This document shows positions 3,234-60,496 of a stretch of DNA of 64,000 nt, in pieces. Every line of letters starts with the position of its first letter. The stretch's first letter is position 1. The translations under genes and the position numbers were made by a program. Below the pieces are notes generated by a model. It was not told the origin of the DNA. It did no database searches and saw nothing but the letters and a program-made list of their open reading frames with translations. Origin of the DNA: an uncultured Acidimicrobiales bacterium (GTDB lineage Bacteria; Actinomycetota; Acidimicrobiia; Acidimicrobiales; CATQHL01); NCBI GenBank assembly GCA_958295925.1, contig OY282384.1:1572-65571 (forward strand), in the 5' to 3' direction.

Positions 3234-3698
3234 ATGACACCGACCATGGAAACCCCGACTTACGGGGAACAAGCCACGCCCTGCAGAGAAGAGAGAGCCT
3301 ACCTGCCAGCGAAGCTCTTCCACCAGCAGACCCGCACCAAGCAGCTGGAACTGCTAGCCACCCTGGGCAATCCCCTAGCCCGGAACCCGGAATTGAACCG
3401 CACGGTTCTCTACTTGACCAAGTCCGGGCAGTCCGAAAAACCGATCGCCGAGTTCTTCATCGAACGCAAGCGCCAACCGCCCGGCTGCCCCTGGGTCATC
3501 GTCGGCTGGGACCAGGAAGTCAGCTCCACTCTCAGTAGCGAGTGCCTGCCCAGCCTGGACGACCTGGACCGCGCCAAGCTGGAGGAGATACTGGACGACT
3601 ACCTGGACCAGCGCGCCCAGGCAAAAGCCGAACAGCGGGAACGCAAGCGGTCCAAGGCCGCGCAACTACTGCTGGCCCCGCTGTTGGGCGGCTTCTAG
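3234..3698 (+). CDS. hypothetical protein, family B copy 2
   Basis: ATG 3234 seven nt after AAGGAGG 3220-3226 (inside the end of the previous gene); MTPTMETPTYGE parallels MDMTTLETPTLGPE. Confidence 0.65.
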   Translation: MTPTMETPTYGEQATPCREERAYLPAKLFHQQTRTKQLELLATLGNPLARNPELNRTVLYLTKSGQSEKPIAEFFIERKRQPPGCPWVIVGWDQEVSSTLSSECLPSLDDLDRAKLEEILDDYLDQRAQAKAEQRERKRSKAAQLLLAPLLGGF

Positions 3699-3727
3699 CC
3701 AGAGAGAACAAGGCGCTGCCTTTTTTC

Positions 3728-3775
3728 TTTCCCGGTTTGGGGCCGTGTTGGGGTCCCGCGTTTCGGCGGGGTTCC
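3728..3775 (+). repeat. intergenic TTTCCCGGTT element, copy 1 (long form)
   Basis: tttcccggtttggggccgtgttggggtcccgcgtttcggcggggtt; about 80% identical to copies at 61766 and 62561. Confidence 0.6.
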
Positions 3776-3813
3776 CGACAGGGCAGAGAGACTTGACCAA
3801 CAGACCATCCGCC

Positions 3814-3860
3814 GCTGGGCGAAGGGAGTTAAGCCTTCCTTCGCCCAGCGGCCTTTTTTT
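3814..3860 (+). terminator. rho-independent terminator
   Basis: GCTGGGCGAAGG / CCTTCGCCCAGC perfect 12-bp stem, 12-nt loop, then 7 T (3854-3860). Confidence 0.75.
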
Positions 3861-3911
3861 ACTGCCCCGCATTGTACCGGCCTACCCACCGGCCGGAAAG
3901 GAGAACTAACT

Positions 3912-6922: not shown

Positions 6923-7714
6923 ATGCCGGAAGTGATAAACGACCTGCCTGCGAAGTTTCACCAGCGACTGTTCCAGGAAGACGTGACAGCAGTCCTGAAA
7001 CGCCTGCCCGACGCCTGCCTGGACGTAGTCTACGGCGACCCCGACTACAACGTCGGGATCAAGTATTCAGGCCATTCCTATACCACCGAGTGGCAGGAAT
7101 ACGTGGACTGGTACGTGGAACTGGCTACCCAGTGCCTGCGGGTATTGAAGCCTACGGGTAATTTATTCCTCATCAACTACCCGAAGCAGAACGCCTACCT
7201 CCGAGTCCTGGCCTTGGATAGATTGGCCCACGCGGTCCACGACTACGTCTGGGTCTTCAATACCAACGTGGGGCACTCGCCCCAGCGATTCACGACTGCG
7301 CACCGGTCAATCCTTCACGCGGTGAAGTCGCCGGACAACAACTGGCACAAGGACGCCGTGGCCCAGCCCTACCTGAACCCCCGGGACAAGCGCATCCAGA
7401 CGCGCATCGCCCAAGGCGAAACGGGCCGGATGCCCTACTCCTGGCTGAACTTCGAACTGGTCAAGAACGTCGCCAAGGACAAGACCGAGCATCCCTGCCA
7501 GATTCCGGAAGGCCTTTCGGAGTTATTGCTGAAGGCCGCCGCCCGGCCCGGCGACTCCGCTTTCATCCTATTCGGCGGCTCCGGCTCGGAGGTGCTGCAG
7601 GCAGAGCGACTAGGACTCACCTGGCTGAGCTGCGAACTCTCCACCGAGTTCTGTGAATTGATCGAAAACCGGCTGGCCAAGCAGCGTCAGCTGGAACGCA
7701 GCCGGCTGCTTTAG
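6923..7714 (+). CDS. DNA methyltransferase, beta-class N6-adenine/N4-cytosine type
   Basis: VVYGDPDYNV (DPPY-type motif IV) early, then HPCQIPEGL and FGGSGSE (SAM motif I region) near the C-terminus. Confidence 0.8.
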   Translation: MPEVINDLPAKFHQRLFQEDVTAVLKRLPDACLDVVYGDPDYNVGIKYSGHSYTTEWQEYVDWYVELATQCLRVLKPTGNLFLINYPKQNAYLRVLALDRLAHAVHDYVWVFNTNVGHSPQRFTTAHRSILHAVKSPDNNWHKDAVAQPYLNPRDKRIQTRIAQGETGRMPYSWLNFELVKNVAKDKTEHPCQIPEGLSELLLKAAARPGDSAFILFGGSGSEVLQAERLGLTWLSCELSTEFCELIENRLAKQRQLERSRLL

Positions 7715-12958: not shown

Positions 12959-13054
12959 CGCTGCCCCGCAGCCGGTTCCCATCCGAAACCCCGTGGAAGG
13001 AGAAGCGAACCCGGGAGCATAAAGGCAGCTACGCCTATTTAGGAGGTGAGAACC

Positions 13055-14764
13055 ATGACCGCCGCACGCCCGCGCCGCCGGCTCACGCCGGAACGCAGCC
13101 AACAGATACTCCAAGCTATGCAGGATAGCAAGAACCAAGCCAGCTACCAGCAGGAGCAGGAAGCCACCGAGGCCAGGAGCAGAGCCCAAGCATCGGCTCA
13201 GGCCGCCGCCCCGCCGGCGAAGCCCCGCACCCCGGGGCGAGGCGGCAAGTTCCTGCTTACCTCCGGCGTCGCCGCCGGCACCTGCGCCATAGTACTGGCC
13301 GGGTGGCTGACGCTGGCCAGCACCTTCGGTGGGAATGAACCGGAAAACTACGCGGCTATCGCCGACAACCCGTACTATGCCGCCGCAACGGCACCGCCCC
13401 AGGCCCCGGCCGCTGAGCTATGCCGCTACGGCGAGGAATGGGCTGCTTGCGCCGCGCCCACGCCGGAGACCACAGCACCCAGATACAGCGAACCGGAAAT
13501 GGGAAATCTGACCATCCACCCCGAGGTATGGAACGAAGGCATCATCACCGGTGAGTACCAGGCCGAGAGCCGTGCCCACAGCCCAGCACCGGACAACGAA
13601 CCTAAGCCGACCCAGGCAGAACCGGAAACGCCGGCAGAGGCAGCCCAGGCCCTTACATCCCTGGCCCAGGCTGAAACCGAAGACCCAGCCGCGCTGGAAA
13701 CGGCCGCAGAAGCCGCCCCAGAAGCCGCAGCGGAGACCACCCCGGTGGAGCTTCCCAGCAATGAGGGAACTACTCCAGAGACGACCCCGGAGTGGAACCC
13801 AGAGACCGATGCCAGCATCGACGTGACCCTGGTCACGGAAGTACCCGCCGAATGGCAAGAGCCTTTCACCGTCGCAGGCACGGCCGAAGAAACAGACAGC
13901 TATGCGCCGACCAGCGCCGTCAGCCAACCGGCCTACCTGGCCTACCTGGACCCCACAATGATAGAGGAGATCTTCGGCAACCCGGAGAAGAGGGACGGAG
14001 GAGAGGAGCCCCTATGCACCAAGGCCCAACCCGAGCACGTGGAAACACTGGTCACCAGCAAATCGGAAGTGGAGACCATCGTCACTGGGTTCCACTGCAA
14101 CCACAGCAGATACCTACAGCTAGGTAACGCCATTGCGCAGCTGGAAAGCATGCTCGGTAGAGCCTACCCTCTGAGCAAGACCGTTCTACTGAACACCCCC
14201 GCAGAGGGGCACGACACTTGCGGGTTCCTACCCCACCCAGACTACAATGTATATTCAGGCAACGTGGTTTGGGACAAGAGCACCATCGTGGTCCACACAA
14301 CCCGGCATGGAGCAGACACCAGCTGCGGAAGAATGGAAGCAACCATCATCCATGAGGTAGCGCACGCTTGGTTCCACGGAAACGAGCTCTGGTTCGATGA
14401 GGGAATGGCCGACCACTTGGAGCGCAAGCTCACCGAGACACGAGCCAGGCCGGTCTGCACCCAGTTCAAGAACCTAAAGGAGTTAGAACGAGCCCTCGAC
14501 GACGGAGAGGAAACCAGCAACTGCGAGTACTCCATGGGCGGCGCGCTCTTCGACGAGCTAGAAATGCACTTCCGGTCAAAGCGAGGAGCGAACTTCTACA
14601 CTCTGATGGGAGAACTAGCCCGCCAGACGGTCGAGAGCAGCAATCATGGCTGGCTGGACTACCGTAAAGGCAAAGCCAACCTCTGGATGGCAGATGGGAT
14701 GGATTCCAAGGCCCGCGAGATCATCGACAGATGGTGGGACGGAGACCCATACAAGCCCAGATAG
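13055..14764 (+). CDS. membrane-anchored protein with C-terminal HExxH (Peptidase_MA-like) domain, copy 2
   Basis: AGGAGGTGAGAACC then ATG 13055; TM FLLTSGVAAGTCAIVLAGWLTLA; acidic A/E/T/P linker; TIIHEVAHAWFHGNELWFDEGMADHLE. Confidence 0.7.
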   Translation: MTAARPRRRLTPERSQQILQAMQDSKNQASYQQEQEATEARSRAQASAQAAAPPAKPRTPGRGGKFLLTSGVAAGTCAIVLAGWLTLASTFGGNEPENYAAIADNPYYAAATAPPQAPAAELCRYGEEWAACAAPTPETTAPRYSEPEMGNLTIHPEVWNEGIITGEYQAESRAHSPAPDNEPKPTQAEPETPAEAAQALTSLAQAETEDPAALETAAEAAPEAAAETTPVELPSNEGTTPETTPEWNPETDASIDVTLVTEVPAEWQEPFTVAGTAEETDSYAPTSAVSQPAYLAYLDPTMIEEIFGNPEKRDGGEEPLCTKAQPEHVETLVTSKSEVETIVTGFHCNHSRYLQLGNAIAQLESMLGRAYPLSKTVLLNTPAEGHDTCGFLPHPDYNVYSGNVVWDKSTIVVHTTRHGADTSCGRMEATIIHEVAHAWFHGNELWFDEGMADHLERKLTETRARPVCTQFKNLKELERALDDGEETSNCEYSMGGALFDELEMHFRSKRGANFYTLMGELARQTVESSNHGWLDYRKGKANLWMADGMDSKAREIIDRWWDGDPYKPR

Positions 14765-15588: not shown

Positions 15589-16842
15589 ATGAAGAAAGAA
15601 AATGAACCGAAATTCCTTGCCGTGGACTTTTACTGCGGCGCCGGCGGAACCACCCGCGGGCTGAGCGACGCCGGTGGATACGTGATCGCCGGCGTAGACA
15701 AGGACCCGGCCTGCCGCCGCACCTACCAGGAGAACAACCCCAACTGGACACTCGACCGGGGAACCCCCGAATACCTAGAGATGGACATGTTCCCAGCAGC
15801 CCCAGACCATCCCGAGGGCCAGCAGGACGAAATCATGTCCGAACTCAACCGGCTACTCGGCCCAGCCAAAGAGAATCATCCGCAGCTCCCCCTGCTTTTC
15901 GCCATCTGCGCCCCGTGCCAATCCTTCACAAAGTATCCGCAGCCGCACATGTCGGAAGGGAGAACGCGGGCCCGGGCGACAGACAGCAGCCTGATCGCCC
16001 AGTCCCTGCCCTTCATCGAACGGTTCAAGCCCGAGATGATACTCTGCGAGAACGTAGCCGGCATCGAAAAGAGCAGGTACGCCGCAGTCTGGACCGACTT
16101 CATCGAGCAGCTAAAAGAGAAAGGGTACCGAGTGGGAACCAGCACCGTGTGCGCCGCCGACCACGGCGTCCCGCAGAACCGCAAGCGCTCCATCATAATG
16201 GCCGTCAAACGCAAAGACGGCGACGAGGCGAAGAACGAACCCATCGCAATGCCGCAGCCAACCGGAGAAGGCCGAAAGCCGACGGTGGCTGACGCCATAT
16301 CACACCTGCCGGCACTGCAAGCCGGGGAGAAAGACGAGAAACTAAGCAACCATGCGTGCCTGAACCTCTCGGAGACGAACAAGAGCCGACTACGCGCCCT
16401 CGCGCCCGGACAGCCGAACCACCTGCTCCCCGACGAACTGGCGCTCCCCTGCCACCGCCGGCTAGAGAAGAAAGGGAGAAAAGGATTCGAGGATCCCTAC
16501 ACCCGCCTGCGGCCGGACCGCCCGGCCCCGACGATAACGACGCGGTTCAACAGCGTGTCCAACGGGAGATTCGGACATTACGACCCGGAGCAGACGAGGG
16601 GACTATCCCTGCTGGAAGGAGCGCTGCTCCAATCCTTCCCAGAAGGATACCGGTTCCGCGGAGGAAGTGCGGAGACCGTCGCCCGGATGATCGGAAACTC
16701 AGTCCCGCCGAAGCTGGCAGCCAGCATGGCGGAGCACCTATGCGCCGCGTACGGCAAGAACCCGTCCCAGGAGAACCCATACGACGCCTGCGAGGCGGAA
16801 CCAAGGAGGACGCAATGCCTGAAGAGGGAAAAGAGACCATAG
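15589..16842 (+). CDS. dcm: DNA (cytosine-5)-methyltransferase
   Basis: Motifs I FYCGAGG, IV CAPCQSFT, VI LCENVAGI, VIII QNRKR, X GNSVPP. Confidence 0.95.
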   Translation: MKKENEPKFLAVDFYCGAGGTTRGLSDAGGYVIAGVDKDPACRRTYQENNPNWTLDRGTPEYLEMDMFPAAPDHPEGQQDEIMSELNRLLGPAKENHPQLPLLFAICAPCQSFTKYPQPHMSEGRTRARATDSSLIAQSLPFIERFKPEMILCENVAGIEKSRYAAVWTDFIEQLKEKGYRVGTSTVCAADHGVPQNRKRSIIMAVKRKDGDEAKNEPIAMPQPTGEGRKPTVADAISHLPALQAGEKDEKLSNHACLNLSETNKSRLRALAPGQPNHLLPDELALPCHRRLEKKGRKGFEDPYTRLRPDRPAPTITTRFNSVSNGRFGHYDPEQTRGLSLLEGALLQSFPEGYRFRGGSAETVARMIGNSVPPKLAASMAEHLCAAYGKNPSQENPYDACEAEPRRTQCLKREKRP

Positions 16843-17223: not shown

Positions 17224-17652
17224 ATGACGGACTTCCTCACCCCGGAAGACCGCTCCCGGCTGATGTCCAAGATCAGAGGAAAGGACACCCGGCCAGAGAA
17301 AACCGTGCGCCAGCTCCTCTGGCACGCCGGATTCCGCTACCGGCTGAACGACAGGAAGCTGCCGGGAACCCCAGACCTGGCGCTAGCCCGATACCGCACC
17401 GCCGTCTTCGTCAACGGATGCTTCTGGCACCGCCACGACTGCCGGAAAGGCACGAAGCTCCCCAAGACAAACCGGCAGTACTGGCTGAAGAAATTCGCCG
17501 ACAACGCCGCGCGAGACGCCGCCAATCTCCGGATACTATCCCAGTACGGATGGACGACCACGGTGATCTGGGAATGCAGAATGGAAGAGGGGACGCAGCA
17601 CCTGCTGTTGGAGCTGTCCGAAAAGAGACGAAGGGAGAAGGACCGAACATGA
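17224..17652 (+). CDS. vsr: very short patch repair endonuclease
   Basis: RSRLMSKIRGKDTRPE..LPGTPDLALARYRTAVFVNGCFWHRHDC..TNRQYWLKKF..GWTTTVIWEC matches E. coli Vsr along its length. Confidence 0.93.
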   Translation: MTDFLTPEDRSRLMSKIRGKDTRPEKTVRQLLWHAGFRYRLNDRKLPGTPDLALARYRTAVFVNGCFWHRHDCRKGTKLPKTNRQYWLKKFADNAARDAANLRILSQYGWTTTVIWECRMEEGTQHLLLELSEKRRREKDRT

Positions 17653-25960: not shown

Positions 25961-26467
25961 ATGACGCCATCGACTGCACCAGCCGAGACCCCGGCCGAGA
26001 CCCCGGCCATGACCCCCGACAACAAGGCCCACCCCCAGCACCGGAACACCCCGGCCTGCCTGCTCTTCGATGAGAACAAGTTCACCCTGGAAGAGGAAGT
26101 AGAGTTCCTCAAGGACACCAGCGTCGTCGACCTCCGCCAGGCCACCACATCCGAGCACCTGGACTGGCTGCTGGCCCAGTCCAAGAAGTACTGGCCGGAC
26201 GACCACCCCCGGCCCAACGTCGACTGCCTGACCACCGGCGACATCCGCCTCACCTGGTGCAGCCATCACGGCTGCGATTACTACCTCATCGTCTGCCCCC
26301 ACCGAGGCGACGGGACAGTCTATCGTTTCCACCAGGACGCGAACGTCGCCGGAATGGAACTGTCCCAGCCGCGGCAGAGGCTGCCGGACTTAAATCAGCG
26401 CAGCAGCTGGGCCGCCCTGGCCAAGTATATGAGGGCGCCGCTACCGCCTGAGGAACAGCGCGATTAA
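25961..26467 (+). CDS. hypothetical protein, family D
   Basis: YWPDDHPRPNV..DIRLTW..YYLIV..SWAALAKYMRA; N-terminus carries the AETP/AETP/AMTP tandem repeat (25982-26017). Confidence 0.6.
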   Translation: MTPSTAPAETPAETPAMTPDNKAHPQHRNTPACLLFDENKFTLEEEVEFLKDTSVVDLRQATTSEHLDWLLAQSKKYWPDDHPRPNVDCLTTGDIRLTWCSHHGCDYYLIVCPHRGDGTVYRFHQDANVAGMELSQPRQRLPDLNQRSSWAALAKYMRAPLPPEEQRD

Positions 26468-26489
26468 AACCGTCACCCACAGAGGGAAG

Positions 26490-26921
26490 ATGTTTATTAC
26501 ATACACAGTCGATACCGACTACACGAAACCATTCCAAACAACGGTATGGTGCCACCCAGGGAACAAGAAACCCGAGGGCGGACACACCATCATTTACTGC
26601 GCGCACCACCCAGGCGGACCACCCTCAATGCTATATGATGTAGCCGGCATCACAGGAACCAACCCAAGAGTAACTAAGGGTGAGGAAACAGAGCTACGCG
26701 CCCACGGGATAGGAACAATAAGGATAAATTACAAGCGAAGCGAGACTGCTCTACGGTCACCCATCACCTCAATGCACGTATTCAGACAGTTCTCGAGAAC
26801 CAAGAGATGGTGGATAAAACCTTGCAAACAAACACCGCCATGCGGCCTGCAAGAAATAGTCACCCAAATAATCGACTACCAACACAGGGAGCCGGAAAGA
26901 CGCGGCCAGCGACCACAATGA
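26490..26921 (+). CDS. hypothetical protein (lower-GC gene)
   Basis: Track ORF 143 aa; visibly more AT-rich than its neighbours. Confidence 0.5.
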   Translation: MFITYTVDTDYTKPFQTTVWCHPGNKKPEGGHTIIYCAHHPGGPPSMLYDVAGITGTNPRVTKGEETELRAHGIGTIRINYKRSETALRSPITSMHVFRQFSRTKRWWIKPCKQTPPCGLQEIVTQIIDYQHREPERRGQRPQ

Positions 26922-27163
26922 AAGAAACCATCCTGCACAAGCCCAGGCCACCACTGCGGTGGCCCCTGACCGCCCATTGCGGCTACAACCGAGAACGCTG
27001 GCATACACCTCCAGAACAGCGACATCGCTTTTGGCGGACGGCGCCCACCGGAGAGCCGCCCCACGGCCGGGAGCTGACCTGTCCCGACTGCTACGCGCCG
27101 GCTGGGCCACCGGCCAGGCTTAACCAGACAAGCGGAGCCAGGGAACATGAAGCTATTGCTTAA
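26918..27163 (+). CDS. small hypothetical protein (81 aa)
   Basis: ATGA overlap with the previous gene; MKETILHKPRPPLRWPL..CGYN..CPDC. Confidence 0.45.
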   Translation: MKETILHKPRPPLRWPLTAHCGYNRERWHTPPEQRHRFWRTAPTGEPPHGRELTCPDCYAPAGPPARLNQTSGAREHEAIA

Positions 27164-27234
27164 CCGGACACAGCCGGGACCACAGACGAGACCATAGACC
27201 GACACAGACCGGCCTGGAACTCACCCAGGCCAAA

Positions 27235-27264
27235 TTGACAGCCACCGCCAAAATCTGCTAGACT
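27235..27264 (+). promoter_or_regulatory. sigma70-like promoter P1
   Basis: TTGACA 27235-27240, 18-nt spacer, TAGACT 27259-27264. Confidence 0.5.
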
Positions 27265-27343
27265 GAAAGGGCAAGACTGGACGATGAAGCCGCTCAAGCT
27301 TCGAGTCCAGCGATGCATGCACAGACCGAGGCTGCGTTTTGAG

Positions 27344-27362
27344 GGTCTTACCTCTACGTTTC
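27344..27362 (+). repeat. left arm of a 19-nt perfect inverted repeat
   Basis: GGTCTTACCTCTACGTTTC, reverse complement of 27580-27598; sits in the 27-nt loop of the GCTGCG/CGCAGC hairpin. Confidence 0.9.
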
Positions 27363-27418
27363 GCGCAGCAGCGGTTGCCAAGTAAGGAGTGCGAAACCGA
27401 ACTTGGCGGGGCGGTAGG

Positions 27419-27458
27419 AACCCCGAAGGGCGAAAATAAACCCTTCGGGGTTTTTCTT
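27419..27458 (+). terminator. rho-independent terminator
   Basis: AACCCCGAAGGG / CCCTTCGGGGTT 12-bp stem, 10-nt loop, TTTTT. Confidence 0.8.
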
Positions 27459-27493
27459 ATACCAACCCACACAGATTTGCACCCCGCCAGGGA

Positions 27494-27521
27494 TTGACAT
27501 TCCACGGCATACGGCTAAAAT
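27494..27521 (+). promoter_or_regulatory. sigma70-like promoter P2
   Basis: TTGACA 27494-27499, 16-nt spacer, TAAAAT 27516-27521. Confidence 0.55.
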
Positions 27522-27579
27522 AGAAAGTGCCAGCCGAGGAAACCCTCTTCGCACGAGGGAAACCGCCACAGACGGCTGA

Positions 27580-27598
27580 GAAACGTAGAGGTAAGACC
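27580..27598 (+). repeat. right arm of the 19-nt inverted repeat, covering an SD and abutting ATG 27599
   Basis: GAAACGTAGAGGTAAGACC followed directly by ATG 27599-27601. Confidence 0.9.
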
Positions 27599-27639
27599 AT
27601 GCGACTACGCTGCAAAGCGTCAAACTTAACAATCCCCCA

Positions 27640-28190
27640 CAACCTCCCCGGTGAATCGAGCGCCGCCTCAGGCAGGGCTTCCGACCTTCAAAGGAACACG
27701 CCCAGCGAAAAGGCGGAGGAGTTCCAACTCAACCCAGCAACTGGAGCAGCAACTGGACCAGCGACTGGAGCAGCAACTGGAGCAGCAACTGGAGCAGGGC
27801 GAGCCGAATTGGCGATAATCCGCTCCAGTCGCGCAACTCACCGGGCAAATAGCACACCGCCAGGGAATTCAGCTACGAAAGTCGGCCGCGACGAAGAGCG
27901 GCTGGAGCACTGGAGCGATGGAGCAGCAATTACGAGTCGAATCTTCCCGGGAGTGGAAGAAGAGGAGGAAGAAGAGAATCTCTTCTCTCTATTCACATTA
28001 GCACCTGATCAGATCAGGATCGACCCCGAAACTCCCGCTCCAGTGCTCCAGCGCTCCAGAGACCCTCCGCTCCGCTCCAGGAAACCAGGGAACGTACCGC
28101 CCCGCACCTACCCCCGCAGCAACAACAGAATAGAAAAGCCCCAGCGACCAGGCACGGTCACCGGGGCGAAACCAAGAATAAAGGTGGCAA
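27640..28190. other. origin-of-replication-like iteron region
   Basis: Direct CTGGAGC: 5 x 12-nt units at 27735-27794, then 27902, 27910, 27919. Inverted GCTCCAG at 27822, 28037, 28045, 28053, 28074. Purine tract with hairpin 27970-27986 and palindrome CCTGATCAGATCAGG 28004-28018 lie between them. Immediately upstream of the primase-helicase gene. Confidence 0.55.
27735..27794 (+). repeat. 12-nt tandem repeat x5
   Basis: CAGCAACTGGAG x5 with variants CAGCAACTGGAC and CAGCGACTGGAG. Confidence 0.9.
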
Positions 28191-28191
28191 A

Positions 28192-28470
28192 ATGGTACAG
28201 CATCAGAACTCCCTTGACAACCCCCTGGCCGAGACGCCAGCAGGACAACCAGAGGAAAACCCGACGACCGGGGCGGGAGGCAGGCCCGCCCGCCCGACAG
28301 CCCGCACGGTAGCCGAGGCCCACAGCCGCGCCCGCTGGCTGATCACCGAGAACAAGACACCGGCCTTCGGCTGGATCCACCCCAGAGCGGCCGCGGTCCG
28401 TCCCCCGTCCTGCGAACACGTAACGGTCAGCGCGCAATTCAAGGTCACCGCCAACACCCCGCGCGCGTAG
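28192..28470 (+). CDS. small hypothetical protein upstream of, and in frame with, the primase gene
   Basis: AAGGTGG SD, ATG 28192; 92 aa; ends TAG 28468-28470 in the same frame as the downstream gene. Confidence 0.45.
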   Translation: MVQHQNSLDNPLAETPAGQPEENPTTGAGGRPARPTARTVAEAHSRARWLITENKTPAFGWIHPRAAAVRPPSCEHVTVSAQFKVTANTPRA

Positions 28471-28494
28471 CTCACCCACCAGGAGGCAATCGAC

Positions 28495-30456
28495 CTGGTC
28501 AGAGAGCTGAAGGCCAGAGGCCGTCCGGCAGCCCCCGCCTACTGCCACTCCAGCGTGAACCACACCATCGACCAGGACAATCTGGGCTTCAATTTTTTGG
28601 ACCTGGACAACGGGAGCCGGGACGACCCCGACGGCCTGGGCGCGGAATGCTTCCGCCAGGTCATCAATACCTTCCTGGAACGGTGGCCCGACGCCCCCAT
28701 AGCAGAAAGCCTCTCCGGCAACGGACGCTGCCACATCCTCCACAATGCCGACCCGAAGGACCGAGCCGCCTGGAGCAACGACAAGAAGCAAACCTACATC
28801 GCCCACGGCGCGCCGGAGTGGAAGGTGGAATTCTGGGACCCCTACGGGCAGGGACGATACCGAATCTTCACCGACCGCTGGCTGAACGGCGACGCCGACC
28901 AGGCGCCCCTGCCTACGATCACGCACACCGAATTGAGAGAGTTCTTCCAGACCATCCTCGCCCAGCTCTGGCGCCCCGAGCCGCCAAAGCGGCCGGTAGG
29001 AAGGCCGCCGGCGGCCGACCCCGACATCCCCTACCCCGATGGAACCCACCTGGCTCAGACCGAGCAGGGTGCAGCGCTGCGGGTGGCCCAGCGCCAGCTG
29101 GAACAGGAACGACCCATGGTCATGCTGGACGACGGAACCTGCTACATCGCCCGAGACAGCGGACTGCTGGTCCAAATCCGAACCGACCAGCCCCTGGGCG
29201 CCGGCTCCCGGCTCTTCGCCAGCGAAATCAGGAAAGCCAATCACGCGGCAACTCAGGAATTCACCGAAGACCGCAGCGAAGCCGAACTCCCGACCTATCG
29301 GCATTACCAGGACCAATTCATCACCTGGGCCGACTCCCGCCCAGCCAACTTTCCGGATAAAGTGCTGCGCCACCTCACGATACTAGCCGAGGACGAAGCG
29401 GAGCACCCTCAGCTGATCTGGCACCAACAGAACAGAGCCCCGCTCACTCAAGCCAACCTGAACCCGCAGCCGCCGAAGGATTCACTGTACCCGCTGGCCG
29501 ACGGCCGGATCTACTCCACCGCCCGCAGCGACGTACTCAGCCCGGAGGAGGTCTACCACGACCTCCACACCGACGACGTGGCGCGGCTCACCCGTACCTG
29601 GGTGCCCGGCGCCTTCCAGCCGGACGCGGGCAAGTGCCAGCCCCAGGGGCAAACCTACGCCGCTTGGCTGCTCCAAGCATGGGCCGACAGCTTCAAGCTC
29701 CTGGTCTTCGCCTCCACCCGCCCCCGCAAGGAATGCGGCTTCAGCATCATGATCGGACACCCCGACCGCGGAAAAACCACGATGCTGGACATCTGGCAGA
29801 CGCTGGGGCTCTGCAACAAAACCAACCAACCGCTCCGGGACCAGAGCCGCAGCGGCATCCGACCCTTCGACTACCTGGCCGCCGCCCTCTGCAAGGAGCG
29901 ACTGGTGTTTCTGGACGAACTGGCCACTCCCCTGGAGGAGAATCCCAAGCCGATCCCCAGCGGGCCGCTGAAGGCCCTCACCGGACAGACCACGCTGACG
30001 TACGAGACCAAGTTCAAAGACGAAGTAACCCGCACCCGGCGGGGCAACCTGCTGGGCGTGGGAAACCACCCGCTGCTTTTAGACGCCGCGAACCCGGCCA
30101 TCCGTGAGAGGCTGCTCTTCATCCCGGAACCGAAGGAAGTGGAAGCCCTGAAGCCCCACCACGGCCTGCCGCCGGGACTCCGCAACACCGCCGAGTGCCT
30201 GGACGCGATACTGGACGCCTACCTCCAAGAAGCCAGCCGGCAGAGCAAGAGCAAGAACGACAGCCCGCCCTTCACCGCAGCCAGCTCACGAGAGTCCCGT
30301 AAAATCCGCGCCCAGCACGAAGCCCACTACGCCGCCTGGCAGGAGCAACAGCGCAGGAAACAGGGCCGCAACGGAAAGGCGCCCACCCCAGAGAAAGCAC
30401 CCGGAAAAGAGACCAGAACCAAAACAACCGGTACCAGGAAGCAGGCCAGCCGGTAA
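28495..30456 (+). CDS. replicative primase-helicase (AEP prim-pol N-terminus + SF3/P4-D5-type helicase)
   Basis: FNFLDLDNG (DxD) and SLSGNGRCHILH (SxH); Walker A GHPDRGKTT, Walker B LVFLDE. Start uncertain: AGGAGG 28481-28486 + 8 nt + CTG 28495; track start GTG 28555 has no SD. Confidence 0.8.
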   Translation: MVRELKARGRPAAPAYCHSSVNHTIDQDNLGFNFLDLDNGSRDDPDGLGAECFRQVINTFLERWPDAPIAESLSGNGRCHILHNADPKDRAAWSNDKKQTYIAHGAPEWKVEFWDPYGQGRYRIFTDRWLNGDADQAPLPTITHTELREFFQTILAQLWRPEPPKRPVGRPPAADPDIPYPDGTHLAQTEQGAALRVAQRQLEQERPMVMLDDGTCYIARDSGLLVQIRTDQPLGAGSRLFASEIRKANHAATQEFTEDRSEAELPTYRHYQDQFITWADSRPANFPDKVLRHLTILAEDEAEHPQLIWHQQNRAPLTQANLNPQPPKDSLYPLADGRIYSTARSDVLSPEEVYHDLHTDDVARLTRTWVPGAFQPDAGKCQPQGQTYAAWLLQAWADSFKLLVFASTRPRKECGFSIMIGHPDRGKTTMLDIWQTLGLCNKTNQPLRDQSRSGIRPFDYLAAALCKERLVFLDELATPLEENPKPIPSGPLKALTGQTTLTYETKFKDEVTRTRRGNLLGVGNHPLLLDAANPAIRERLLFIPEPKEVEALKPHHGLPPGLRNTAECLDAILDAYLQEASRQSKSKNDSPPFTAASSRESRKIRAQHEAHYAAWQEQQRRKQGRNGKAPTPEKAPGKETRTKTTGTRKQASR

Positions 30457-30482
30457 CTCCGCCGATAACGGAGCAAGCAGGG

Positions 30483-31005
30483 ATGAGCAACGATCTCAGA
30501 ACCTACCAGGACACGCCCCTGGAAGAGTTGAGCATAGCGATGCAAGGCGCCGGCGCCAGGGGCAGAATGGTGAGCAACGAAGCCCGCTTCTACATCGACT
30601 GGGCCGGCGGCTGCCACGTCACCAGCCCGAGCACCGGCAACGACCCGCCGCTGGCAGTGCGAACCAACTCCGTCTCCGGCAAGACCGGCGCCTACTACTA
30701 CGCCTGCGAAAGGGAAGCACTGGACACGGTCGACGCCCTGCTCAACTGGACGCCAGCCAGAAACTCGGCCAGAACGCCAGCCAGGAACGGCGAACCCAAG
30801 GAGAAGACAAGACAGACCACCCCGAGGCACACCCCGGCCCGCCGGCGGCGGAGTAACCCACGCCGGCATCTGCCCCCAGTGCCAGGGGCCTTCCTACGCC
30901 AGGAACAAGCTCTGCGCGCCTTGCCTGAACCGGAACCGACTGGCCAAGTACACCCAACTGCTAAAAGACCTGGAACAAGAAAGAAGCCGGCCAACCGGCA
31001 GCTAA
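30483..31005 (+). pseudogene. hypothetical gene with a frame discontinuity and a zinc-ribbon C-terminus
   Basis: Frame of ATG 30483 looks coding to about 30840 then becomes RRRRSNPRRH junk. The +1 frame has no canonical (ATG/GTG/TTG) start and reads GGGVTHAGICPQCQGPSYARNKLCAPCLNRNRLAKYTQLLKDLEQERS to TAA 31003-31005. Confidence 0.4.
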
Positions 31006-31057: not shown

Positions 31058-31930
31058 ATGGCTGGAGCAACAACAAAACAGCGCGCCAAGCGCCTGAACG
31101 ACCTCTCCGGGAAAGAGTGGATGAAATTCAGCAAGTCCTGGTTCACCCTGCCCCCAGGCAAGCCCGACAAGGCCAAGCAGGCCCTCCACCCCGCCACGTT
31201 CCCGGACACCCTGGCCGAACAATATATTACCTTCTTCACCCAGCCCAGCCAGGCCGTCCTGGACCCCTTCCTGGGCAGCGGGACGACAATAGAAGCCGCC
31301 GAGCGCTTGGACAGAAAAGCCGTCGGCATCGAACTAGAACCCAGCTTCGCCGACTTCGCCCGCACCCGAACCGGCAGCCCTATCCTGGTCGGCGACGCCC
31401 TGACGGTACTACAGGACCACGACCGGCTCCCCAACCACTCAATAGACTACATCCTGACCTCGCCGCCTTATTGGAACACCCTGGCCCAGAGCCGCGGCGG
31501 CAACAAGGACACCCGCCACAAGAAAAGAAAAGAACGCGGCGACGCTTTAACCTACGGCGACCACCCCGCCGACCTGGGCAACCTGGATGACGCCGAGGAG
31601 TACATCGCCAAGCTGGTCGACATCCTCGCCCACGCCCACCGCGTGCTAAGACCCAAGGGCTACCTGACCGTGATCATCCAGAACCTGAACTACCAGGGCT
31701 CCTTAGTACCAATCGCCTGGCAGCTGGGGATGGCCCTGGCCAACACCGGCCTCTACGACCTGAAAGGCGAACGCATCTGGTGCAAAGAACAAGGCCGGCT
31801 GGGCATCTACGGCTACCCCACCGCGTATCAGACCAATAATTTCCATCACTACTGCCTGACCTTCCGCCGGAAAGGAGACCAAGACCAGCAACAGCGCCGG
31901 ACAGAAGTCGCGCCCAGCCCCCAAGGCTGA
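31058..31930 (+). CDS. DNA methyltransferase (SPPY type; N4-cytosine or N6-adenine)
   Basis: HPATFPDTL..VLDPFLGSGTT (motif I) precedes ILTSPPYWN (motif IV). Confidence 0.85.
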   Translation: MAGATTKQRAKRLNDLSGKEWMKFSKSWFTLPPGKPDKAKQALHPATFPDTLAEQYITFFTQPSQAVLDPFLGSGTTIEAAERLDRKAVGIELEPSFADFARTRTGSPILVGDALTVLQDHDRLPNHSIDYILTSPPYWNTLAQSRGGNKDTRHKKRKERGDALTYGDHPADLGNLDDAEEYIAKLVDILAHAHRVLRPKGYLTVIIQNLNYQGSLVPIAWQLGMALANTGLYDLKGERIWCKEQGRLGIYGYPTAYQTNNFHHYCLTFRRKGDQDQQQRRTEVAPSPQG

Positions 31931-56247: not shown

Positions 56248-58131
56248 ATGACTAACGCCGCCAACAGCCAGGCAGTCCAACAGCCAGGGCATAAATCGCC
56301 TCTTACAGAGCCGATTTATGCCCAAGGTCCCCTCAATCGCGGTGTCTATATCGCCGACAACTACCATTTCCTCCAGTCCTTAAACTCAGAAAGCATCGAC
56401 CTCTGCGTCATCGACCCGCCCTTCGCCAAAAACGAAACCTTCGGCCGCCGCAATCCCAAGAACCCGGACCCGCTGAAACCGCCCCTCTCCGCCCTGGAAC
56501 AGCAGACCGAGCTGGAACTCCTGGCCCGCTGGGGCATCCACAACCAGGAACAAGCCGACCAAGCCGGCATCAACTGGCCCGAAACCCGGTACCACGACAT
56601 CTGGTCCTGGGAGAAGGACATCCATGAGAACTGGCTGACCGACTTGAAGGCCGACCACCCGGCCATCGCCGAGCTGATCGAAGCGGCCGCCCTGACCCAC
56701 AGCGACTCCACCGCCGCCTACCTCTGCTACATGGCAGTCCGCCTGCTGGAGATTCACCGCGTGCTGAAAGCCACCGGGAGCCTGTACCTCCACTGCGACC
56801 ACACCGCCAACGGGTATTTAAGAATGCTGCTGGACGCAGTATTCGGACACCAGAACTTCAGGAATGAGATCACATGGAGAAGAACCTACGCCCACAACGA
56901 ACAGAAACAATATGGCCGCACCAGCGACACCATACTGTTCTACAGCAAGTCAACAGAACATAAATGGAACAGGGTACTAACCCCCTACACAGAGGAGTAC
57001 AAAGGAAAGTATTTCAATTACTCGGACGAGAGGGGAATATTCCAGCCAATCACATTGACCGGAGCAGGAACTACCCGCGCCGAGTCCGGCAGCACCTGGA
57101 AAGGATACAACCCAACAGATTCAGGGAGACACTGGAGCATCCCTAGACGAATCATCCAACAATTAGTTGGAGAAAAAGCAAACCAACTTTCCCTGGAAGA
57201 GAAGATGAACCTACTAGAGCGGGAAGGATACATCTATTGGCCCAAGGAAGGGAACACACCCAGAGTTAAACAATATCTCCACGAGATGAAAGGGACACCA
57301 GTCCAAGACATCTGGACTGACATCGGACCACTCTCTGCACACGCAGCCGAACGCACCGGCTACCCCACCCAGAAACCAGTCGCCCTGTCCGAAAGAATAA
57401 TCAAAGCCTCCACCAACGAAGGCGACGTCGTCCTGGACTGCTTCGCCGGCTGCGCCTACGTCCCCGTCGCCGCCGAAAGATTGAATCGACGCTGGCTGGC
57501 CTGCGACCTCAACCCCCGCGCCTGGACCGTCTTCAAACGCCAATTTTCCAAGCCCTCCCTGGCTCTGCTGGACTGCCAGGAGGAGACCCACGACCAATAC
57601 ACTCTGGGCGAAGGCTTCAACGGCCTGGCCACCGTCCACGGGCCCAACGAACTGCCGGTCCGCACCGACCCGGAGCACAACGGCCACGCCAAGACCAGGA
57701 ACCTGCCCACCCCGGAACGCAAGTTCAAAGTCCCCGCCGCCAACATGCCGAACCAGCTAATGCTGCAGAAATTACTGGAACTCTCCGGCTACCAGGCCTG
57801 GTGCTGCGGCTTCGCCAATCGCAAGGCGGACGGTACAGTAGTCCAGACCACCAACAACTTTCACCTGGACCACATCAACCCTAAAAGCGTCAGCGGCTCC
57901 GGCTGGTCCAACGACATCACCAACCGCGCCCCGCTCTGCCCGCATCACAATATTCAGAAATCCAACCGCAGAGTCGGATTATACGAACTCCGCCAGGAGA
58001 TAGAAAAGGCCGGCGAGCTGCTAGTCGACTCCGTCAGGGAACTGAAAGACCTGGACCAAGCCCACCACCAGGCCCTGCAGCTGCACCTAAAAGCAGAGCT
58101 GGATAAGCAGCAGCCATTCGTACAGCTGTAG
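56248..58131 (+). CDS. beta-class DNA methyltransferase fused to a C-terminal HNH nuclease domain
   Basis: LCVIDPPFAKNE (motif IV); GYPTQKPVAL..VVLDCFAGCAY (motif I region); C-terminal FHLDHINPKS..NRAPLCPHHNIQKSN (HNH). Confidence 0.85.
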   Translation: MTNAANSQAVQQPGHKSPLTEPIYAQGPLNRGVYIADNYHFLQSLNSESIDLCVIDPPFAKNETFGRRNPKNPDPLKPPLSALEQQTELELLARWGIHNQEQADQAGINWPETRYHDIWSWEKDIHENWLTDLKADHPAIAELIEAAALTHSDSTAAYLCYMAVRLLEIHRVLKATGSLYLHCDHTANGYLRMLLDAVFGHQNFRNEITWRRTYAHNEQKQYGRTSDTILFYSKSTEHKWNRVLTPYTEEYKGKYFNYSDERGIFQPITLTGAGTTRAESGSTWKGYNPTDSGRHWSIPRRIIQQLVGEKANQLSLEEKMNLLEREGYIYWPKEGNTPRVKQYLHEMKGTPVQDIWTDIGPLSAHAAERTGYPTQKPVALSERIIKASTNEGDVVLDCFAGCAYVPVAAERLNRRWLACDLNPRAWTVFKRQFSKPSLALLDCQEETHDQYTLGEGFNGLATVHGPNELPVRTDPEHNGHAKTRNLPTPERKFKVPAANMPNQLMLQKLLELSGYQAWCCGFANRKADGTVVQTTNNFHLDHINPKSVSGSGWSNDITNRAPLCPHHNIQKSNRRVGLYELRQEIEKAGELLVDSVRELKDLDQAHHQALQLHLKAELDKQQPFVQL

Positions 58132-58255: not shown

Positions 58256-60496
58256 CTACAGACCAAGCAAGGAAAGCCCGAGACGCTGCCGCGCAACATC
58301 AATCGAACAAATCCTCACCTTCATAACCTGCCCAGCAGCAAAAGCATCTGCCGCCCGCCAATCCTCCCCCGGTGGGATCTCGGTCTTATGCACCAAGCCT
58401 TTCAAACCCAGCTCAAAGCGGACGAAGATACCAAAATCAGCCAGGCCGTCATAAACCCCTACTATCACGTCCCCCACGGAATGACGCTCAGCCAGGAAGT
58501 CCCAAGGGTCCCGGAGACACGGAAGAGTCAACCGCACGTTCCCCTTCTCCGGGTCCCTACCATCCACGGAAGTCACCCGAACAACGACAGGATCGCCCAC
58601 TGAAAGCTCACCCAATTCCTGGGCAGCGAGCATAGAGAGACACTCCGAAGGAACAAGACCATCCACAACCCCCAACGAGACAAAAGCCCCATGCTCAGTA
58701 ATCGAAGACACTCTACTGCTGAACTCCTGGCCCACCTGGAAAGACTGCCGCCGCCCCCGCCGTACAGCCTCAACCCCACCGGCAGTGTCCAACTCCACCC
58801 ACGGACCCCACCCATGCCCGTTCACCGCCCGGACGCGGTAACGAGCACCAGCAACAAGGCTCCGCCCCACCATCGTAGAGAAGGCGCCAGAGCGACCACC
58901 CACTGAAACATCCCGATCCGACTGCCATTCCCCAGCATGATGCTGTACCTCAAAATGCGTCACGGGAGAATAACCGGACCACACCGGCATCTCCCAGGAG
59001 AAGCCATAAGCGTCTCCCCGCTGATAAACCAAGGACAAAGAGCGCACCGCGCCAGGAAAAGCACCTTTCACCTGCACCGACGAACCGTGCCAAGGCGTGG
59101 AATAACCCCGCCACCTTGCCCGAACACGATATTCGTAAAGAAACGTCTCCAGAGGAGGCACCAGCGGTTGATCCACAAAATCGACACCCTCGGTCTCAGG
59201 GAAGACCTCGTCCTCGCTGAACCCAGAAAGAGAAGAGACATACCGGACAACTTCAAAAACGACGCCGTCAGGACGGCAGGACAAGCTCCAAGAAAGGTCG
59301 ACCATCCCACTCCCCGGGCGGACCGCAGCCCGCAGCGGAGACAAACCCAGAACAGAAGAAACCGCCTGCACCAACTCCTCCTCAGTGAGAGAAATCAGGG
59401 CCCAAGGCCCAGGGATACCAACATCGCTAATACCCCGCACCCGAACCGAAAGACCCGACAAGTCGGTTACCTCGTAAGAATAAGGAACATCCGAACAGAC
59501 ACACTCGAACCGGACCGACCCATCGGAGAATTTTTCCACCGGACAAGAACAGGGAACCCCCGGAACGGTTTCGACGGCAGCCCAGGAACCAGAGAAAGAA
59601 TCCCAAGACTCCAACTCATACGCGCGAGTAGGAAGGATCTGCCGCGGCCCCAAGTCGCCAGAGAGTCCCCACTTCAAACCGAAAAGGAAATTTTGATTCT
59701 CCGGATCAAAGGACAGCCCAGCCGACTTCAACGCCAGCAGCGGAACCGCAGAGACACTGGTCACCTCAGCAAAGCGCGCAGCGCCAAAAACCGCCCGCTC
59801 CTGCTTATAAGCCTTCAAAGCCCATTCACACCGCCACGCCGTCTGACGACTATCTAAAGGCGGCGAAAGCCAACGAATCCGATGCTCACCCCGATTGCGA
59901 GTATCAGAATTACGAACCTTCTTCCAATGTTCGTCATAAATGAGAACAAACTCAGAGGAACGATACTCAACGACCCTAGAGCTATAGGCCCCTGGATTCC
60001 GAATATCATTACGCCCCGCCATATACAAGGCATTCTTAGCAACAACCTCATGTTGAAACTGACGAAGCGAGGGATTGTAAGTCATACCAACGTAACCAGT
60101 CTCCAGCTGGTAGACAAAGAATCCTTCACGAAGCAATGGCTTACCCTTGCACCCAGGGACAATCCCATCAACCGGCTCAACAGAACAAACATTGCTAGTG
60201 CAACTGGACGGCTTGCCCCCACAGGAGAGATCAAGCGTCACCAACCACCCAGCACAGAACGGACACATTGGAGAATCAACTTCCAGATAATGCTTTTCCT
60301 TGTGATCGGGATCGACACAAGCACGAGCGCAAGCGCCACAGACAAACTCGGACTGCGACTTAGCAGAACCGCACATGGCACAATCCAGGAGCAACAAAGG
60401 GTCCAGCAACCCCAAAACACGGTTCATCTCAGGAAGATGAGAACTCTCCCCAGCCAGGAACCGCCGCGACCAGACGTCACGATACTCAGTAGTCAT
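58256..60496 (-). CDS. multidomain protein: zinc ribbon + GIY-YIG nuclease + FN3-like repeats + two S1 RNA-binding domains
   Basis: 746 aa. CAMCGS..CGACARAC; FFVYQLETGYVGMTYNPSLRQFQHE (GIY-YIG); YEYRVRARW and ARYRVRAVNGHGWGPW (FN3-like); GQEFSSRVSSITEHGAFVSL and VGDVIVGVYDGLADFGIFVRF..GLVHKTEI..GQVMKVRICSIDVARQRLGLSL (S1). Overlapping + ORFs are Arg-rich junk. Confidence 0.75.
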   Translation of the reverse strand: MTTEYRDVWSRRFLAGESSHLPEMNRVLGLLDPLLLLDCAMCGSAKSQSEFVCGACARACVDPDHKEKHYLEVDSPMCPFCAGWLVTLDLSCGGKPSSCTSNVCSVEPVDGIVPGCKGKPLLREGFFVYQLETGYVGMTYNPSLRQFQHEVVAKNALYMAGRNDIRNPGAYSSRVVEYRSSEFVLIYDEHWKKVRNSDTRNRGEHRIRWLSPPLDSRQTAWRCEWALKAYKQERAVFGAARFAEVTSVSAVPLLALKSAGLSFDPENQNFLFGLKWGLSGDLGPRQILPTRAYELESWDSFSGSWAAVETVPGVPCSCPVEKFSDGSVRFECVCSDVPYSYEVTDLSGLSVRVRGISDVGIPGPWALISLTEEELVQAVSSVLGLSPLRAAVRPGSGMVDLSWSLSCRPDGVVFEVVRYVSSLSGFSEDEVFPETEGVDFVDQPLVPPLETFLYEYRVRARWRGYSTPWHGSSVQVKGAFPGAVRSLSLVYQRGDAYGFSWEMPVWSGYSPVTHFEVQHHAGEWQSDRDVSVGGRSGAFSTMVGRSLVAGARYRVRAVNGHGWGPWVELDTAGGVEAVRRGRRQSFQVGQEFSSRVSSITEHGAFVSLGVVDGLVPSECLSMLAAQELGELSVGDPVVVRVTSVDGRDPEKGNVRLTLPCLRDPWDFLAERHSVGDVIVGVYDGLADFGIFVRFELGLKGLVHKTEIPPGEDWRAADAFAAGQVMKVRICSIDVARQRLGLSLLGL

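Follow-up and report, generated by a model that had tools for sequence, protein, structure and literature searches.

We analyzed a 64,000-nucleotide stretch of DNA from an uncultured Acidimicrobiales bacterium (GenBank assembly GCA_958295925.1, contig OY282384.1, positions 1,572 to 65,571; hereafter the window), with a focus on a perfect 19-nt inverted repeat located upstream of an origin-like region and a primase/helicase-like replication gene. Sequence features, their statistics, predicted structures, and energies were computed directly from this DNA. A codon-usage scan of the window identified 54 open reading frames (ORFs) with a positive score, all 54 on the + strand. Between about 26470 and 28190 it detected no coding in any of the reading frames, so the inverted repeat lies within a non-coding region of about 1.7 kb. 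Read from left to right, this region holds a promoter-like site (P1), a structured segment carrying the left arm of the repeat, an intrinsic terminator, a second promoter-like site (P2), the right arm at a possible translation start, an iteron-like tandem array, and an origin-like core, after which the replication gene begins (Table 1). The initial annotation of this DNA had proposed that the P1 unit encodes a small RNA, or the upstream half of a long-range stem, that could occlude the Shine-Dalgarno (SD) sequence and start codon of a leader ORF downstream of P2.

Table 1. Coordinates of the inverted-repeat locus, the neighboring origin-like region and replication gene, and other features named in the text (positions are those of the window unless a relative's contig is given)
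Feature	Position	Strand	Description
Promoter-like P1	27235-27264	+	TTGACA-18-TAGACT, TG-extended -10, 10/12; putative start near 27271
Candidate small RNA, ~188 nt	27271-27458	+	Three hairpins plus terminator; putative ends
Hairpin 2 (predicted)	27324-27376	+	Interrupted 12-bp stem 27324-27337 / 27363-27376; 25-nt apical loop 27338-27362 displaying the left arm
Left arm	27344-27362	+	GGTCTTACCTCTACGTTTC; includes anti-SD-like CCTC
Second small-RNA segment complementary to leader	27406-27423	+	Linker between hairpin 3 and terminator, plus lower terminator stem
Intrinsic terminator	27413-27460	+	GC-rich stem, perfect 12-bp core 27419-27430 / 27441-27452, then TTTTTCTT
Promoter-like P2	27494-27521	+	TTGACA-16-TAAAAT, 11/12; putative start near 27528
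Right arm	27580-27598	+	GAAACGTAGAGGTAAGACC; exact reverse complement of the left arm, in the P2 leader
Open frame, 237 codons	27599-28312	+	From ATG 27599 through the iterons; overlaps the start of the replication gene
Iteron-like tandem array, 12-nt unit	27735-27797	+	CAGCAACTGGAG, 5.2 copies, score 112, the best tandem-repeat score of the window
Origin-like core	27901-28059		CTGGAGC repeats on the + strand (27901-27925) facing - strand copies (28036-28059)
Second leader site complementary to small RNA	28088-28105	+	GGGAACGTACCGCCCCGC; ~500 nt beyond the first site
Candidate true countertranscript	28128-28220	-	Promoter-like 28220-28192 (TTGTCA-17-TACCAT, 9/12); hairpin 28167-28138 plus U run
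Primase/helicase-like replication gene	28192-30456	+	Continuous coding signal, family matches, homologues
Relatives' origin-like regions	L006 8432-8664; L007 3573-3766; L008 5665-5930; L009 5729-5952; L010 130-166		
Methyltransferase/Vsr genes	6923-7714, 15589-16842, 17224-17652, 31058-31930, 56248-58131		

The two arms are complementary at all 19 positions, as first annotated, and are separated by 217 nt, giving a unit of 255 bp. Their repeat is the longest spaced perfect inverted repeat of the 64 kb, with 15 nt being the maximum reached in 100 dinucleotide-preserving shuffles of the whole window, and two copies of the 19-mer were found in none of the 100 shuffles. The repeat is clearly non-random, far beyond chance. 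Within the window, the 19-mer is present at the two arms only, with no further copy even when 3 mismatches were allowed, and no copy was found in IMG/VR. Five metagenome contigs (L001 to L005, GC content 30-33%) contained the 19-mer, with the match extended to 20 nt. These contigs are homologous to one another in one low-GC marine coding sequence and are unrelated to the window outside the 20 nt, and the 19-mer match in them is therefore a chance match.

P1 and P2 were identified as the two best sigma-70-type matches in positions 1-60000, all remaining sigma-70-like sites in this range scoring 9/12 and numbering close to the shuffle expectation. This places the window's top two promoter matches 260 nt apart, one before each arm. 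The terminator that closes the P1 unit is one of just two strong + strand terminators in the window, and the RNA between P1 and this terminator (27271-27460) was predicted to fold at -83.7 kcal/mol (z = -5.0 versus shuffles). Compared with all + strand segments of the same size, the small-RNA segment ranked in the lowest 1.7% for minimum free energy (MFE) and in the lowest 3.4% for AT skew. The window has a GC content of about 0.6, an AT skew of +0.2 to +0.45 throughout, and more C than G; the small-RNA segment is a local exception to this extreme A>T skew, a return to A≈T in an A-rich strand that a self-paired RNA requires. The codon-usage scan detected no coding signal within it. The left arm ranked second among 170 19-nt stretches of the small RNA for predicted accessibility, rank 1 being the same stretch shifted by one base, and a weak internal mini-helix of 4 bp is possible in the apical loop of hairpin 2. 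The initial annotation was right about both promoter-like sites, the strong terminator, and a structured segment of about 185 nt; the second hairpin does display the left arm in its loop, but the predicted loop is 25 nt long and not the 27 nt given there. A separate 12-nt tandem repeat (CACAGACGAGAC, 2.6 copies) is located at 27169-27199, about 35 nt before the -35 element of P1.

The right arm corresponds to nucleotides ~53-71 of the putative P2 transcript, spans an SD-like GAGGT (27588-27592), and ends with its last base directly before ATG 27599, which agrees with the placement originally described. GAGGT stands six bases ahead of this ATG, and both motif and spacing resemble those of the element's real genes; the chance that a random 19-mer covers such an SD-ATG amounts to ~1.8% of window positions. 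Duplex energy had been suggested early on as a check of the pairing, and the computed arm-arm duplex reached -32.5 kcal/mol, with opening costs of ~6.8 and 6.0 kcal/mol for the two sites and a favorable net value of ~-19.8 kcal/mol. When 27271-27640 was folded as one full RNA, the 19-bp long-range stem was present in the MFE structure and dominated the fold (-152.2 kcal/mol, z = -8.1). We also identified a second, GC-rich complementarity of the same polarity, between 27406-27423 of the small RNA and 28088-28105 of the leader, with 11 nt perfect within 15/18 and a duplex energy of -30.7 kcal/mol; an 11-nt complementarity was attained by 1.5% of 400 shuffles.

The leader downstream of P2 is C-rich and G-poor, with a G-free, C-rich run of ~30 nt at roughly 27622-27651. 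The length of the open frame of 237 codons that starts at ATG 27599 was reached in 1.45% of shuffles, i.e., it is longer than expected by chance. Its product would be a hydrophilic, low-complexity sequence of 237 amino acids, for which family and profile scans returned no family match or homologue. A type I toxin-antitoxin module was rejected on the basis of this product, which is not a small hydrophobic toxin.

Further downstream, the region originally described as iterons and replication genes resolved into the tandem array, the CTGGAGC arrays, and the primase/helicase-like gene. A lower-GC spacer, with GC dipping to 0.50 at 27900-28049, is enclosed by a perfect inverted repeat of 17 nt (27901-27917 / 28036-28052). 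Eleven of the 28 CTGGAGC copies of the window are concentrated in 27741-28080, where all six + strand copies lie left of 27920 and 4 of the 5 - strand copies lie right of 28030. The locus thus has the features of an iteron origin, including opposed repeat clusters, a lower-GC spacer, an adjacent initiator-type gene, and an arrangement common to homologues. A 15-nt direct repeat at 27479-27493 (GCACMCCGCCAGGGA; pattern GCAC(C/A)CCGCCAGGGA) and 27852-27866 adjoins the -35 element of P2 and recurs between the iteron arrays; the match is statistically marginal, and the repeat may be a protein site joining P2 to the origin.

The replication gene matched PHROG "DNA primase" families (E = 7.6e-12), and DUF5906 was detected at 27.5 bits, just below the family cutoff of 27.6. 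The N-terminal ~100 residues of three relatives (P0002, P0004, and P0005) align with ORF 28192-28470, and the replication gene therefore begins at ATG 28192. A PDB sequence search with the replication-protein profile gave no hit. On the - strand, a candidate for a true countertranscript crosses the start of this gene; its hairpin (28167-28138), located ~20 nt past a promoter-like site, is the strongest - strand terminator hairpin of the region, and the predicted RNA of ~58 nt would be antisense to the SD region of the replication gene (-27.4 kcal/mol, z = -5.9).

A word-based search with the replication protein returned only the protein itself, and scans of viral and genome collections, by protein and by profile, returned nothing. 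An exhaustive profile-free protein search identified 19 relatives besides the query, the best of them 44% identical, and the contigs of five relatives (L006 to L010) were used as comparison loci. The origin-like design was present in all 6 loci with homologous replication genes, either as opposed short-repeat arrays or as a long inverted repeat around an AT-richer spacer, and the repeat sequence differed clade by clade, with GTTGCG within a 61-nt perfect repeat in L006, a 51-nt repeat in L007, and TGCTACC / GGTAGCA arrays in L008 to L010. This design, being common to the five homologous loci, supports 27735-28080 as the origin served by the downstream protein. Upstream of its origin, L007 also has a near-consensus promoter (3371-3399), a structured RNA of ~150 nt, and a 15-bp terminator (3514-3547), and L006 has a small helix-turn-helix gene in place of the regulator-like unit.

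From these features we infer two + strand transcripts and their ends, their pairing in vivo, translation at 27599, and all downstream effects (Rho, RNase III, and copy control), and we give roughly an even chance, trans and cis modes included, to the best-supported explanation, a switch in which RNA-RNA pairing silences the replication leader. P1 would yield the terminator-bounded small RNA of ~188 nt, and its hairpin 2 loop would present 19 nt complementary to the P2 leader. Pairing would occur in trans on P2 transcripts and in cis on P1 transcripts reading past the terminator; it would mask the SD and ATG 27599 and block ribosome entry, and the 19-bp duplex could be a substrate of RNase III. 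Left untranslated, the C-rich leader would be exposed to decay or Rho-dependent termination ahead of the iteron origin (27735-28080) and the gene at 28192, and the second complementary pair may reinforce the first. Because regulator and target would both be made from the element, the level of the small RNA would track copy number, which would give negative feedback on replication or an immunity-like block.

Several observations point toward such a switch. The placement of P1 and P2 would put each arm on a separate + strand RNA, and the predicted P1 unit ends in a strong terminator and is unusually structured. In the predicted structures, the small RNA is at its most accessible where the left arm lies, and the right arm covers the SD-ATG. 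The second complementarity has the same polarity as the first, which a DNA switch would not predict. The putative target transcript would enter origin-like iterons and a primase/helicase-like gene, a layout also present at the five homologous loci. The CI RNA of P4 and the c4 RNA of P1/P7, discussed below, provide a same-strand precedent.

Other observations weigh against it. Both RNAs are deduced from sequence features, and perfect 19/19 arms flanking a promoter would also be the appearance of an invertible promoter. The Rfam/Infernal scan that had been proposed for the small RNA gave no family match at gathering thresholds anywhere in the window, the C4 antisense RNA included, and a permissive scan of 26900-28300 returned only four hits, all to miRNA and lncRNA families of eukaryotes and at chance level (E 2.6-4.5). 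The leader ORF at 27599, as first proposed, needs correction: the codon-position composition of the 237-codon frame is flat, with third-position C at 0.33 versus ~0.5 in genes, and its coding score is negative. The frame is probably not a conventional gene; at best it would be a leader that is translated. In the replication gene, an in-frame TAG (28468-28470) takes the place of a Trp conserved in P0002, P0004, and P0005. This TAG could be a nonsense codon (pseudogene), a sequencing error, or a read-through site, and because of it the replication module may be decaying. Recoding of TAG was rejected, as TAG is an ordinary stop of the element and ends 26 of the 54 genes. The upstream regions of the five relatives share no nucleotide similarity with the window and show no significant complementarity between a regulator and an SD, the homologues being at most 44% identical; in L007, the regulator-like RNA matches the SD of its replication gene by 7-8 nt, which is the chance level. 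The proposed occlusion of the SD and ATG is favored by computation (duplex energy, accessibility, SD-ATG overlap, and promoters); the control regions of the relatives, all of them distant, are unrelated in sequence to that of the window.

The same arms could belong to an invertible promoter (inverton), in which a site-specific recombinase would flip the 217-bp core with its terminator and P2 between the 19-bp arms and toggle the replication leader between a P2-driven and another state. The initial annotation had raised DNA inversion as the alternative, and the geometry fits well, with perfect 19-bp inverted repeats, a 255-bp unit, and an inner promoter, P2, reading outward to the right arm. 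The unit also falls in the common size class, as >75% of 10,983 PhaseFinder invertons are <300 bases (PMC11602134), and recurrent recombination would keep the arms identical. However, no recombinase family was found in the coding-scoring + strand ORFs or among the remaining large ORFs scanned on both strands of the 64 kb, although a recombinase could be encoded elsewhere on the 643-kb contig, and a flipped P2 would face a stretch without - strand coding signal. Judging by the sequence, inversion would leave the terminator with no U tract, and P1 would replace P2, so that no clean ON/OFF switch would result. Inversion would also leave unexplained the position of the left arm in the most accessible loop of a structured RNA bounded by promoter and terminator, the coincidence of the right arm with the SD-ATG, and the second complementarity, and we consider it unlikely, though a serious rival. 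Fold-back insulation in cis alone, by which the upstream arm would mask the start site in P1 read-through RNA and leave only P2-initiated RNA translatable, with no trans role, has the appropriate geometry (left arm before the P2 start, right arm on the ribosome-binding site), and the stable fold of 27271-27640 holds the 19-bp stem in its MFE structure. Yet the strong terminator between P1 and P2 should make read-through a minor species, and a dedicated 25-nt loop display and a second site would be superfluous for plain insulation, which makes this explanation distinctly improbable.

It is more improbable still that both 19-bp sequences act at the DNA level, as operators for a regulator or initiator looping DNA around P2. 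Two identical sequences do bracket P2, and other repeats near P2 recur in the origin, such as the 15-nt repeat at 27479-27493 and 27852-27866, but the 19-mer is non-palindromic, unrelated to the CTGGAGC iterons, and without a third copy in the window. The family scan recognized no adjoining DNA-binding regulator, and operators would not explain the fit to the RNA structure and to the SD. We regard a relic or insertion, either a promoter-carrying miniature inverted-repeat element or a functionless chance duplication, as very improbable. The premature stop in the replication gene might mark a decaying region, and almost no relatives of the element exist to show constraint; against this, the stem of hairpin 2 straddles the supposed insertion boundary, and a decaying repeat would not remain 19/19 perfect. 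A miniature inverted-repeat transposable element was rejected in its own right, since the arm flanks (TTTTGAG / ATGCGAC) show no target-site duplication and no further copy is present in the 64 kb. A retron was rejected on anatomy.

Among known systems, the RNA-RNA pairing switch proposed here bears comparison with the phage-plasmid P4 and phages P1/P7. The alpha protein of P4 is a primase-helicase and binds iterons. The P4 CI RNA pairs with same-strand complementary sequences (seqA and seqC) and blocks expression of the P4 replication genes; it arises by processing of a long leader, and its targets lie on either side of it (PMC4825925). As in P4, the putative regulator lies on the same strand, upstream of a primase/helicase-type gene preceded by iterons, with its target further down the leader. 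Unlike CI, it would have its own promoter and intrinsic terminator, a second promoter would serve the target, and the main target would be an SD-ATG and not a termination-control site. Both complementary sites are downstream here, with no upstream target copy in the 64 kb, and there is no sequence or Rfam similarity to CI. The c4 RNA of P1/P7 base-pairs at the ribosome-binding region of the small upstream ORF icd, and the resulting block of icd translation halts expression of the downstream gene; c4 uses two short pairing segments. Here, the right arm covers GAGGT and abuts ATG 27599, and two complementarities are present as well. PMC8198154, with reference to Citron and Schuster 1990, places c4 in the same operon as icd and ant and describes it as needed for full ant repression. 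In contrast to c4, which controls an antirepressor and is processed from the operon transcript, the candidate RNA would act on a replication leader and is not matched by the Rfam C4 model, and the upstream ORF, unlike icd, has 237 codons without coding statistics.

The initial annotation had likened the locus to R1 and ColIb-P9, with the exception that its regulator lies in tandem on the strand of its target. P4 CI and P1/P7 c4 are already same-strand RNAs, so R1 and ColIb-P9 are not the closest analogues, and same-strand pairing at this locus is not a new principle. In R1 and ColIb-P9, the target of the countertranscript is the start region of a leader ORF. Similar to R1 CopA/CopT-tap-repA, ColIb-P9 Inc/repY-repZ, and ColE1 RNA I/RNA II, the locus is predicted to have a small structured RNA, made constitutively, with a loop complementary to a replication leader, and, as with ColE1 RNA II, the target RNA would run into the origin. 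Whereas those countertranscripts are encoded on the opposite strand and overlap their targets, the candidate regulator is a separate same-strand unit with the repeat arm 217 nt away. In IS10 fold-back inhibition, sequence upstream of the transcription start pairs with the ribosome-binding site, and transcripts from outside are translationally silent. The cis geometry of upstream arm and ribosome-binding site is alike, but the locus is not an insertion sequence, a terminator stands in the 217 nt that separate the arms, and a discrete predicted small RNA carries the upstream arm. The locus shares with fimS, the Bacteroides polysaccharide promoters, and the PhaseFinder invertons its short perfect repeats, a segment of <300 bp, and an outward promoter (PMC11602134); it differs from known invertible promoters in that no recombinase was found in the window ORFs tested, nothing on the - strand could be driven in the flipped state, and the arms fall on a predicted RNA loop and on an SD-ATG.

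The very large mobile element that carries this locus is poorly represented in sequence collections. Its proteins are almost without homologues among 5.8 billion proteins, and the sole record of the adjacent replication protein is one 643,545-bp contig. No other assembly of the same element is on record in exact-protein look-ups, and a blastn comparison of 26000-31000 with phage and plasmid collections gave no match. Few of the window proteins matched a family; the matches included an ATPase, a giant restriction/helicase protein, a Vsr mismatch endonuclease, and the products of four DNA methyltransferase genes (N6/N4 and C5 types), all within the 64 kb. L006 and L007 are also rich in methyltransferases. 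We identified a second strongly structured intergenic stretch at 3690-3870 (-97.5 kcal/mol, z = -6.4), where the AT skew is locally reversed and two + strand terminators are present, one of them with a stem of 18 bp (3811-3852). A single - strand gene was convincing (58256-60496); it encodes 746 amino acids with two S1 RNA-binding domains and an fn3 domain and sits in a 2.5-kb break in + strand coding. A 95-nt tRNA-Arg(tct) that ARAGORN called on the - strand (13581-13675) falls within ORF 13046-14764, which is coding on the + strand, and the call is probably a false positive.

We regard it as possible, though somewhat doubtful, that a terminator-bounded small RNA driven by a promoter of its own, lying in tandem with its same-strand target and pairing at two sites of the origin-crossing leader of a primase-type replicon, represents a new replication control, in which copy number or immunity would be set without countertranscript overlap on a 643-kb, almost homologue-free element. 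If the RNA-RNA pairing switch is true, it would extend the same-strand antisense control of P4 and P1 to an unrelated primase-type replicon on a very large and barely characterized element, and it would provide a compact case in which regulator and target evolve as the arms of an inverted repeat instead of as overlapping genes. The switch would also show where the origin and its control sequences lie in an element in which almost nothing else can be annotated. Should the repeat instead be an inverton, the locus would carry a phase-variable replication promoter, which would likewise be unusual.

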